From Candidatus Falkowbacteria bacterium (GTDB lineage Bacteria; Patescibacteriota; Patescibacteriia; Patescibacteriales; UBA12465), in contig CP066698.1 of NCBI GenBank assembly GCA_016432645.1, positions 517,062-581,061 of the forward strand: a stretch of DNA of 64,000 nt, written 5' to 3'. Shown in pieces: positions 27,795 through 28,034 of the stretch. The translations under genes and the position numbers were made by a program. Position 1 is the stretch's first letter, and each line of letters starts with the position of its first letter. The notes under the pieces were generated by a model. The model was given only the letters and a program-made list of their open reading frames with translations, searched no databases and had not been told where the DNA came from.

Positions 27795-27808
27795 AAATTT
27801 ATATTTTA

Positions 27809-27837
27809 TCTTACGTTAATAACTGTTTTGTTATAAT
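27809..27837 (+). promoter_or_regulatory. Module B promoter P1
   Basis: TCTTAC, a 17-nt spacer, then TGtTATAAT. Confidence 0.5.
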
Positions 27838-27843
27838 AACTTA

Positions 27844-27919
27844 GCTGTGGGCCCGGCAGGTCGCGAGGCGGGCTTTGACATCCTGTTCTTCGGGGTCCGA
27901 TTCCCCGCGGGTCCACAGT
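27844..27919 (+). ncRNA. tRNA-like minihelix RNA, module B (RNA1)
   Basis: gctgtgggcccg/cgggtccacagt stem, with T-arm-like cgggg-tccgatt-ccccg. Confidence 0.55.
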
Positions 27920-27933
27920 CGCTAGCTATATTA

Positions 27934-27962
27934 TTGACCCATGAGAAAAAATTTGCTATCAT
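27934..27962 (+). promoter_or_regulatory. Module B promoter P2
   Basis: TTGACC, a 17-nt spacer, then TGcTATCAT. Confidence 0.55.
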
Positions 27963-27964
27963 AT

Positions 27965-28034
27965 GAGTGTCAAAGCCTGTCTATTATGCAACCTGTAAGA
28001 TAAATAAACGCCCCCGCAAGGGGGTTTTTATTTT
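27965..28034 (+). ncRNA. Short terminator-bearing RNA, module B (RNA2)
   Basis: tgtcaaagcc (27968-27977) is complementary to ggctttgaca (27871-27880). acctg (27991-27995) is complementary to caggt (27857-27861). The terminator is ccccc-gcaa-ggggg plus a T-run. Confidence 0.5.

Follow-up and report, generated by a model that had tools for sequence, protein, structure and literature searches.

A tmRNA-like RNA with alanine identity and its candidate antisense partner in a two-gene module of Candidatus Falkowbacteria

We analysed a 64,000-nt stretch of the Candidatus Falkowbacteria contig CP066698.1 (hereafter the window, to which all coordinates refer unless another locus is named) and describe a small non-coding module on its + strand, copy B, at approximately 27801-28034. 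We think it fairly probable that copy B is a two-gene module in which an alanine-accepting RNA similar to transfer-messenger RNA (tmRNA), but without a tag region (RNA1), has its body masked by a dedicated antisense RNA (RNA2). At the sequence level, the module was shown to comprise two genes equipped with predicted promoters, the first for an RNA resembling tRNA-Ala or the tRNA-like domain (TLD) of tmRNA, and the second for a cognate RNA with covarying complementarity in trans to RNA1, from nucleotide 8 to the hairpin loop. The initial annotation of this interval had proposed an RNA module with two promoters, one for a minihelix RNA and one for a short further RNA, and with a terminator at its end. 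That reading was upheld, and promoter 1 (P1), the stem, the T-like hairpin, the GCTAGC palindrome, promoter 2 (P2) and the terminator were all found where it had placed them. The tmRNA-SmpB pair is the main ribosome-rescue system of bacteria.

The minihelix of RNA1 is closed by a 12-bp stem between GCTGTGGGCCCG (27844-27855) and CGGGTCCACAGT (27908-27919), which encloses ∼35 nt and a T-arm-like hairpin. The stem pairs as initially written, but only its inner 7 bp are an acceptor stem, abutting the T-arm in a tRNA-like manner; the outer 5 bp form a leader-trailer extension, and the tRNA-Ala/tmRNA nature of the structure had been missed. The predicted mature RNA1 (G27849 to A27915, 67 nt) joins a minihelix of acceptor stem and T-arm to a short hairpin and a D-loop analogue that has no stem. 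The acceptor 5' strand GGGCCCG (27849-27855, G1-G7, with G3 at 27851) faces the 3' strand CGGGTCC, which is followed by the discriminator A73 (27908-27915; U70 at 27912, A73 at 27915). The 5' leader GCTGT (27844-27848) pairs with positions 27915-27919, U-1 (27848) lying opposite A73, and the 3' trailer reads CAGT (27916-27919), with no CCA encoded. RNA1 has no D-arm; across the family, an 11-15-nt segment with a conserved GG and then a 6-8-bp hairpin stand between the acceptor and the T-arm, and in copy B only 35 nt separate the acceptor 5' strand from the T-stem. These are the D-loop analogue ("box 2") GCAGGTCGCGA (27856-27866, GG at 27859-27860), the short hairpin (27866-27888; stem 27867-27872/27882-27887, loop TTTGACA at 27874-27880) and box 3, TCTT (27887-27890), directly 5' of the T-stem. 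The T-arm is CGGGG-TCCGATT-CCCCG (27891-27907), with C at T-loop position 55.

The module architecture is present three times in the window, and the T-like hairpin pattern has three matches there against 0.07 expected. Both sister copies lie on the + strand: copy A at 26587-26836 (RNA1 26634-26710, P2 26723-26751, terminator 26811-26836) and copy C at 33935-34177 (RNA1 33979-34054, P2 34075-34103, terminator 34152-34177). The single block order claimed for copies A and B was found in both and again in copy C. A first search pattern built on the inner stem and T-loop gave 27 loci in 18 assemblies of Patescibacteria (candidate phyla radiation, CPR), and a covariance model built from 31 RNA1 sequences then recovered further copies with altered acceptor stems; this model scores copies A and C at 94.8 and 81.6 bits. 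A metagenome scan that used only the T-arm and loop word, leaving the acceptor free, gave 64 model matches, of which ∼61 are family members. The total is ∼95 module copies, 34 from the 18 CPR assemblies and ∼61 metagenomic. The assemblies include Falkowbacteria, Magasanikbacteria and some differently labelled bins, which may be mislabelled, and several genomes hold multiple copies.

Alanyl-tRNA synthetase (AlaRS) recognizes an identity set of G3:U70, A73 and G2:C71. Judged by its bases, the RNA1 minihelix carries this set, as do tRNA-Ala and the tRNA-like domain of tmRNA; in copy B it is found as G27851:U27912 and A27915, together with the T-arm at 27891-27907. In the metagenome set, where the acceptor was unconstrained, pair 3:70 was G:U in 59 of 62 copies (A:U in 2, G:C in 1), G1:C72 was found in 62/62 and G2:C71 in 61/62. 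Pairs 4:69, 5:68, 6:67 and 7:66 covary freely in the same 62 copies. Position 73 is A in all but one of the ∼95 copies, and the exception has a compensating C-1:G73; pair -1:73 is U:A in 59 copies, C:G in 1 and A:U in 1, and the outer leader-trailer pairs covary as well. Positions 73-76 read ACAG in 37 copies and ACCA in 5, the latter being divergent members that encode A73-CCA. All T-arm cells (100%) are paired, with compensatory changes in two of the five pairs. The GG of the D-loop analogue is invariant or nearly so. The hairpin stem covaries, and its 7-nt loop has an invariant U (U33-like) followed by U/C-R-A-C-A.

Genuine tRNA-Ala genes were present in two module-bearing loci, L002 and L012, both from the metagenome-assembled genome (MAG) CAYSIJ01. 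They read GGGCCCU...AGGGUCC-A-CAAAC and GGGCUCG...CGAGUCC-A-CAAAU, and share with RNA1 both the type of acceptor and a trailer without CCA. As for tRNA genes in the window, tRNA-Ser(GCU) (9769-9861, - strand) encodes CCA. The tRNA-Ser(UGA) gene (5975-6062, - strand) ends ...CTCTCCG-CAG without CCA, so the organism must depend on CCA addition.

The Rfam tmRNA model RF00023 (gathering threshold 47 bits) aligns RNA1 from its first to its last position, with ∼312 internal positions deleted. The best-scoring relatives were L060 (49 bits, 40.5 on re-run), L055 (48.9) and L013 (45.3), followed by eleven others at 21-32 bits. Among the relatives scanned, tmRNA was the top bacterial Rfam family for RNA1; it was not the top match for copy B. 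The D-loop analogue of relatives aligns to the GGaUUCGAC part of the tmRNA model, and in L060 the aligned segment is GAucuGGaUUCGAC. No match at the window modules passed the curated Rfam thresholds, and a relaxed scan of 400 nt around copy B returned noise only, the tmRNA signal coming with relatives and shorter stretches. The Rfam tRNA model RF00005 stayed below threshold on every copy, and ARAGORN called none of the RNA1 sequences in the window; the exception was one relative, called as a D-armless tRNA-Ser(tga).

Features of tmRNA present in RNA1 are the 7-bp acceptor with G3:U70, A73, the T-arm and the stem-less D-loop analogue with GG. Absent are the mRNA-like domain (resume codon, tag open reading frame (ORF) and stop), pseudoknots PK1-PK4 and the long helix 2. 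Since there is no tag frame and there are no pseudoknots, RNA1 is not a tmRNA proper. On these features the most fitting description is a TLD-only form, in which nothing but the tRNA-like domain of tmRNA is left; calling it a derivative of tRNA-Ala is equally apt. An origin from tRNA-Ser(GCU) was also considered; it rested on an 11-nt identity between this tRNA and copy C and on a weak 21-bit match of the tRNA to the covariance model, applied to B/C-type copies only, and was superseded by the tRNA-Ala and tmRNA evidence. No bacterial Y RNA (YrlA) match was obtained with Rfam at E values up to 10, and the terminal extension of RNA1 is just 5 bp.

The second gene encodes a predicted antisense partner of ∼65 nt, RNA2 (27969-28034), transcribed from P2 (TTGACC-17-TGcTATCAT, 27934-27962), a near-consensus sigma-70 promoter with 10/12 consensus matches. 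RNA2 consists of anti-II (27969-27983), a linker (27984-27987), anti-I GCAACCTGT (27988-27996) and anti-III AAGA (27997-28000), followed by an A-tract and the terminator. It was noted initially that the loop segment GGCTTTGACA (27871-27880) has its exact complement in TGTCAAAGCC (27968-27977), and that five further pairs, two of them G:U, join 27866-27870 to 27978-27982; both statements are correct, and the segment belongs to a covarying RNA-RNA helix. In this helix II, the 5' end of RNA2 pairs with the hairpin loop and the 5' strand of the hairpin (27866-27880 in copy B) over 13-20 bp across copies and ∼15 bp in copy B. The second complementary box, CAGGT (27857-27861) with ACCTG (27991-27995), is likewise real and covarying, but its extent had been underestimated. 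After a linker of 0-10 nt, RNA2 pairs with the D-loop analogue over 9-12 bp (helix I; RNA1 strand 27856-27864 in copy B), starting from the nucleotide right after the acceptor stem, so that the helix ends beside that stem.

A third short complementarity abutting the T-arm and the trans action seen with opposite-strand partners had not been recognized in the initial annotation. In the main class, the AAGAy word of RNA2 can pair with 4-7 nt just 5' of the T-stem (helix III; in copy B, box 3 with 27997-28000). In 30 main-class copies helix I begins at nucleotide 8 and helix III reaches the last nucleotide before the T-stem, with covariation. Helix III is weak or absent where the partner gene is on the opposite strand; because of this, and because its word can also pair within RNA2 and helices I-III are not jointly possible, helix III is uncertain.

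Compensatory changes, which it had been suggested to score across the three window copies, were scored across the family. The partner segments were found by a best-duplex search in the flanks, which inflates the percentages paired and is partly corrected by shuffled and slid controls: helix II was 89.9% paired (65.1% shuffled), with 375 vs. 112 cells changed on both sides and a covariation score of 0.731 vs. 0.221, and helix I was 82.9% paired (51.6% shuffled), with a score of 0.787 vs. 0.247. For both helices 0/500 shuffles reached the observed value, and the slid controls scored 0.05-0.21. The mean interaction energy was -24.1 kcal/mol for cognate and -7.2 kcal/mol for non-cognate combinations, the cognate partner ranking first in 25/30. 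In the window the 3 × 3 matrix was orthogonal (cognate -22 to -27, cross pairs -3 to -12 kcal/mol); these energies were computed on the internal region of RNA1, as acceptor closure together with intermolecular pairing is a pseudoknot for the cofold algorithm. G:U pairs exceed A-C mismatches 84 to 10, from which we conclude that the module strand is the RNA strand.

In nine relatives the partner gene lies elsewhere: upstream on the opposite strand in six, downstream on the opposite strand in two and upstream on the same strand in one. Each relocated gene retains the same start point and is served by a -10 box and a terminator of its own. The pairing therefore appears to act in trans and to have been selected whatever the gene arrangement. 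What was found corresponds to a trans-acting antisense pair: a predicted separate transcript, extended covarying complementarity and an accessible RNA2 5' end. The variable segment had been called guide-like; this did not hold, since the variable segments match only themselves and their own partner in the window, and external targets were rejected on that ground. The varying part is the hairpin stem, which serves as an address for the module's own partner, and the loop is the conserved word U-U/C-R-A-C-A. A role of the loop as a stop-codon mimic (UGA/UAA/UAG) was dismissed as well, because UCGACA, UUACCA and UUAUCAA variants break it.

Promoter positions agree with the two predicted transcripts. 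The extended -10 element of P1, TGtTATAAT (27829-27837), is the predicted promoter of RNA1. Across the family, TG is present in 69/94 copies. A -10 hexamer was identified in 85 copies, and in 77 of them 10-12 nt separate its end from G1, a distance from which a 3-5-nt leader is predicted. P1 had been annotated as TCTTAC-17-TGtTATAAT; the sequence and spacing are right, but TCTTAC (27809-27814), a weak -35-like hexamer, is probably no real -35 box, as the best -35 match is 1-2/6 in most copies. P2 has at least 10/12 consensus matches in 71/87 copies and TG in 74/87, with a spacer of 16-17 nt. The distance from the end of its -10 hexamer to the first complementary base, the G opposite the loop C, is 6-13 nt, so RNA2 is predicted to start at the complementarity or a few nucleotides upstream; when RNA2 is folded by itself, its first ∼13 nt are predicted to stay single-stranded. 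Neither RNA1 nor RNA2 showed a conserved reading frame, such as the small toxic-peptide ORF that would mark a type I toxin-antitoxin system. The idea that RNA2 encodes a tag or peptide was rejected, as frames and stops vary between copies and single-nucleotide indels precede the terminator; B and C end AAC CUG UAA, and A and L001 stop earlier.

The following working model may be drawn from these features. By analogy with tRNA and tmRNA processing and identity, the RNA1 precursor would be trimmed by RNase P and a 3' nuclease, receive CCA and be alanylated by AlaRS. RNA2, with its nearly tail-less 5' end, would seed on the U-turn loop of the hairpin and then zip along the hairpin 5' strand (helix II) and on through the D-loop analogue (helix I) until it reaches the acceptor stem; its short 5' end could ease threading around a loop closed by that stem. 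On structural grounds, such pairing should be incompatible with the hairpin and with the D-loop/T-loop elbow, the region contacted by SmpB in tmRNA, so that RNA2 would mask or destroy the tRNA-like body and spare the acceptor/T minihelix. RNA2 might in this way switch off the alanyl tmRNA-like RNA1 or mark it for duplex-specific decay. Free RNA1 could enter stalled ribosomes without tagging or, equally speculatively, compete with tmRNA for SmpB.

A broader proposal, which we regard as doubtful, is that CPR bacteria keep several chargeable tag-less TLD copies under private antisense RNAs, either (a) for template-free rescue or (b) as RNA-RNA toxin-antitoxin units. In version (a), Ala-RNA1 with SmpB would enter non-stop ribosomes and, with no resume codon, add alanine repeatedly, leaving a C-terminal Ala tail as a degron. 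In version (b), the tmRNA mimic would be a toxin blocking trans-translation, and the antisense RNA that unfolds it the antitoxin.

Several observations weigh against the regulated tmRNA-like pair. A search with an E. coli SmpB sequence as probe found no smpB homologue in 963 kb of flanking DNA, so that a genomic link to the trans-translation machinery is absent there. RF00023 scores copy B at 7.5 bits, below the threshold of 47, and its T-loop has C55; copies A (21.2 bits) and C (15.3 bits) are below threshold as well. Copy B does not encode CCA, and the 5-bp leader-trailer pairing could impede RNase P or 3' processing. The main class has no terminator between RNA1 and P2, so P1 transcripts must read into RNA2 and some of the RNA1:RNA2 pairing may be in cis. 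With linkers of ∼5 nt, helices I, II and III cannot form simultaneously, and the best-duplex search inflates the percentages paired, as stated above. Finally, several orthogonal copies per genome are not obviously required by a simple on/off regulator.

This orthogonality of paralogues is equally consistent with a toxin-antitoxin-like arrangement. In such an RNA-RNA addiction system a stable RNA1 would be a TLD decoy that poisons trans-translation, either through titration of SmpB, AlaRS or EF-Tu or through unproductive entry into stalled ribosomes, and an abundant, labile RNA2 would neutralize only its own RNA1. The several paralogues per genome with mutually orthogonal recognition sequences, an RNA2 promoter closer to consensus than that of RNA1 and hence judged stronger, and the compact, self-contained and transcriptionally insulated units speak for it, as does the report that a TLD-only molecule strongly inhibits tmRNA, perhaps via SmpB titration (PMC4131195). 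We nevertheless consider addiction unlikely, because the modules occupy syntenic sites between housekeeping genes, which favours vertical inheritance over selfish spread, and no copies were found in viral contigs. The arrangement of the helices raises another explanation, an obligate heterodimer in which RNA2 is a structural subunit and helices I and III close a four-way junction with the acceptor stem and T-arm. The product would be a rigid non-decoding alanyl carrier, for example an Ala donor for cell-wall or lipid aminoacylation, or a tag-less rescue particle. The 30 main-class copies with helix I from nucleotide 8 and helix III up to the T-stem, the contiguity of anti-I and anti-III, the constant co-encoding of RNA2 behind a near-consensus promoter, and the readthrough of P1 transcripts into RNA2, by which both RNAs would be made together, fit this idea. 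Helix III, however, is weak or absent in members with opposite-strand partners, its word can pair inside RNA2 too, full helix II and helix III are sterically incompatible, and no transferase gene is linked to the module; a heterodimer is therefore quite improbable in our judgement.

The lack of a terminator between RNA1 and P2 in the main class would also suit a single cis-folding RNA of ∼190 nt made from P1, with pseudoknotted intramolecular helices and an incidental P2. We give this little credit, since the partner is on the opposite strand or upstream in nine relatives, with its own -10 box and terminator, the RNA1-P2 spacer varies in length and sequence, and P2 is near-consensus in 71/87 copies at a fixed distance from the start of the complementarity. 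The hairpin could instead be an anticodon arm, and RNA1 a D-armless decoding tRNA, charged with Ala and reading Ser/Leu codons, with RNA2 masking the anticodon arm to regulate mistranslation. AlaRS, SerRS and LeuRS do not read the anticodon, the 7-nt loop has an invariant U33-like base and an A38-like one, with loop triplets UGA, UAA, CGA and UAG, and ARAGORN reads one relative as D-armless tRNA-Ser(tga). Functional tRNAs have a purine at position 37, and this position is a nearly invariant pyrimidine (C) in RNA1; moreover, the loop is one conserved word and not a set of anticodons, the stem is 6-8 bp and not 5, and the Rfam model that fits is that of tmRNA, the tRNA model failing on all copies, so a decoding function is highly improbable. 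Hardly any weight is left for an intergenic punctuation cassette or relic mobile element that places a terminator and promoters between co-directional genes and yields functionless RNAs. The antisense orientation to both neighbours in ∼24/29 cases, a terminator that overlaps the upstream gene's stop codon and a downstream gene beginning 5-50 nt away are what such a cassette would show. It would not account for compensatory evolution of two intermolecular helices together with the acceptor, hairpin and T stems, nor for the way in which G3:U70 and A73 are strictly kept; we noticed neither terminal inverted repeats nor target duplications, and no copies were found in viral contigs. We accordingly retain the pair of a tmRNA-like RNA and its antisense RNA as the preferred interpretation.

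The elements common to the copies follow the order promoter 1, RNA1, variable spacer, promoter 2, RNA2, terminator, the RNA1-P2 spacer differing in length and sequence between copies. The module is antisense to both neighbouring genes in ∼24/29 complete cases. The terminator points at the incoming gene and the downstream gene, which starts 5-50 nt from the module, diverges from P1; the unit is thus insulated from neighbouring transcription. In copy B the terminator (GCCCCC-GCAA-GGGGGT, 28010-28025, with a T-run to 28034) was scored on both strands and is predicted to serve, bidirectionally, both RNA2 and the convergent minus-strand ORF 28028..29491. The overlap of the T-run with the stop codon of this gene, as first reported, is exact: TTA at 28028-28030 within the T-run is the reverse complement of the stop, and it is the A breaking the T-run that provides the TAA. 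For a minus-strand promoter of the downstream gene inside the module, only weak matches to the consensus turned up in copies A and C, and copy B had none.

Two syntenic sites were seen across genomes. One is ligA-[module]-gatC-[module]-gatA, and the other, at which copy B lies, is histidine phosphatase-[module]-PEP-utilising enzyme (PEP, phosphoenolpyruvate). That different genomes have copies in syntenic positions points to vertical inheritance over a long time. The same gaps hold modules in several genomes at loci L005, L013, L026, L008, L017 and L025, and the gatCAB genes, normally co-transcribed, are split by antisense RNA modules with bidirectional terminators. A search of viral contigs found no module copies, and with zero matches there a phage origin was rejected.

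Other features of the module and its surroundings were recorded. A conserved upstream word, TATATTTTATCTT (27801-27813, +), recurs before copies A (26591-26603) and C (33935-33947) and in relatives, where the variant TTTATCTTTTCTTCAT also occurs; it lies at approximately -40 to -24 relative to P1 and might be a regulator site or part of the neighbour's divergent promoter. The palindrome GCTAGC (27921-27926, +), between the RNA1 trailer and the P2 -35 box, has counterparts of the same sequence at this site in the sister copies (26714-26719 and 34047-34052), and relatives carry GCTAGC, GGTTAACC, GGCTAACC or GGTTGACC; it may serve to bind a protein or as a signal for processing. On the minus strand, 28028-33520 holds four tandem paralogous ORFs of 487, 433, 445 and 460 aa, each with a C-terminal PEP-utilising-enzyme mobile domain and no other Pfam domain. 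Module B lies at one end of this array and module C past the other, beyond a small gene (33523-33936). A giant ORF of 2717 aa occupies 43376-51529 (-). At locus L009, a 327-aa ORF (5894-6877, -) adjoining one module has the YADD reverse-transcriptase motif, of retron or diversity-generating retroelement type; as a single case, this neighbour is probably a coincidence.

Some short identities to tRNA and tmRNA genes were also seen. The tRNA-Ser(GCU) gene shares an 11-nt identity, GGCAGGTTGCT, between its anticodon arm and the D-loop analogue of copy C (33990-34000, +), and the remaining half, TAACCTGT, is found in RNA2-C; the match could be coincidental or reflect a shared ancestry. A genuine tmRNA in metagenome locus L071 (3377-3794, -) begins GGGGGUG-ACC-GGCUUUGAC-GGU-CUGUUCUU, and copy B at 27871-27890 is GGCUUUGAC-AUC-CUGUUCUU, identical at 17/20 positions to this tmRNA start. 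RNA2-B would therefore be expected to have, in its 5' end, complementarity to the D-loop analogue of a tmRNA of this kind as well. Metagenome locus L100, picked up solely through T-arms that match the search pattern, holds 18 tRNA genes and a standard tmRNA (tag ANDNATALPIAA) in ∼6.6 kb (387-6962), and resembles a phage or mobile tRNA island.

In the literature searched, we found no description of a CPR tRNA-like/antisense RNA pair. TLD-only forms were previously known as curiosities from one phage, some organelles and three unexplained Patescibacteria database entries. In CPR bacteria, such RNAs make up a large and conserved family with multiple copies and a retained alanine identity set, in which every copy is coupled to an antisense RNA that co-evolves with it. 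If expressed and charged, RNA1 would be the first tRNA-like or tmRNA-like RNA regulated by a dedicated antisense partner, and tag-less tmRNA function would be directly testable with two RNAs of ∼70 nt, AlaRS and SmpB. The modules also amount to ∼0.25 kb per copy of unannotated conserved non-coding genes in very small genomes, and are a candidate addition to RNA family databases.

Among known systems, RNA1 can be compared with the TLD-only tmRNA forms described in mycobacteriophage DS6A, jakobid mitochondria and two plastids of Mallomonadaceae (PMC11915505, PMC4131195). Both are RNAs of ∼65 nt with an acceptor, a stem-less D-loop analogue, a short helix, a T-arm and alanine identity, and without a tag frame. 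RNA1 differs in having several paralogues per genome, its own promoter and a dedicated covarying antisense gene, and in occurring beside standard tmRNA in its phylum; no partner RNA has been reported for the known examples. Database entries of the "Standard NoCDS" tmRNA type number three in Patescibacteria, the sole named phylum, and three more of undetermined phylum (PMC11915505 Supplementary Table 2). As the same table lists 5252 standard tmRNAs in 6765 Patescibacteria genomes, RNA1 adds to, and does not replace, standard tmRNA in this phylum.

Standard tmRNA (SsrA), which works with SmpB, shares the G3:U70/A73 acceptor, the T-arm and the GG of the D-loop analogue with RNA1. In contrast, RNA1 lacks the mRNA-like domain, resume codon, tag ORF and pseudoknots, and only 13-25 nt lie between the two halves of its tRNA-like domain; the short hairpin is analogous to tmRNA helix 2a or to an anticodon arm. 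The two-piece permuted tmRNAs of alpha- and beta-proteobacteria and cyanobacteria similarly consist of two RNAs base-paired around a tRNA-like domain, but the module gene is collinear, both acceptor strands are in RNA1 and RNA2 has no tag ORF; the permuted tmRNA model RF04321 matches the T-arm only, at 12.4 bits. Compared with tRNA-Ala and alanine minihelices, the acceptor GGGCCCG/CGGGUCC-A of copy B is nearly identical to GGGCCCU/AGGGUCC-A of the MAG tRNA-Ala, and a true tRNA-Ala in metagenome locus L100 has a T-arm sequence found in many RNA1 copies, whereas RNA1 has no D-arm or UGC/GGC/CGC anticodon and has C at position 37. Mitochondrial D-armless tRNA-Ser likewise has an acceptor, a D-replacement loop, a lengthened anticodon-type stem and a T-arm; RNA1 is distinguished from it by its bacterial origin, alanine identity, pyrimidine 37 and antisense partner. 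The mascRNA/menRNA type, which is released by RNase P and RNase Z and receives CCA, is a tRNA-like RNA with an acceptor, a T-arm and a reduced body. The corresponding model RF01684 gives 18.7-41 bits on RNA1 copies, under its threshold; mascRNA/menRNA are eukaryotic and not aminoacylated, and the analogy is one of shape only.

With respect to pairing, the module resembles CopA/CopT, RNAI/RNAII, Sok/hok and RNA-RNA toxin-antitoxin systems: a U-turn loop meets a single-stranded end, the duplex extends from there, and a four-way junction is possible. Cognate specificity among paralogues is a further likeness to CopA/CopT-type and RNA-RNA toxin-antitoxin systems. The differences from CopA/CopT-type pairs are that the target in the module is a tRNA-like non-coding RNA, not an mRNA or replication primer, that there is no toxin ORF, and that the two genes are non-overlapping and lie in tandem or on opposite strands.

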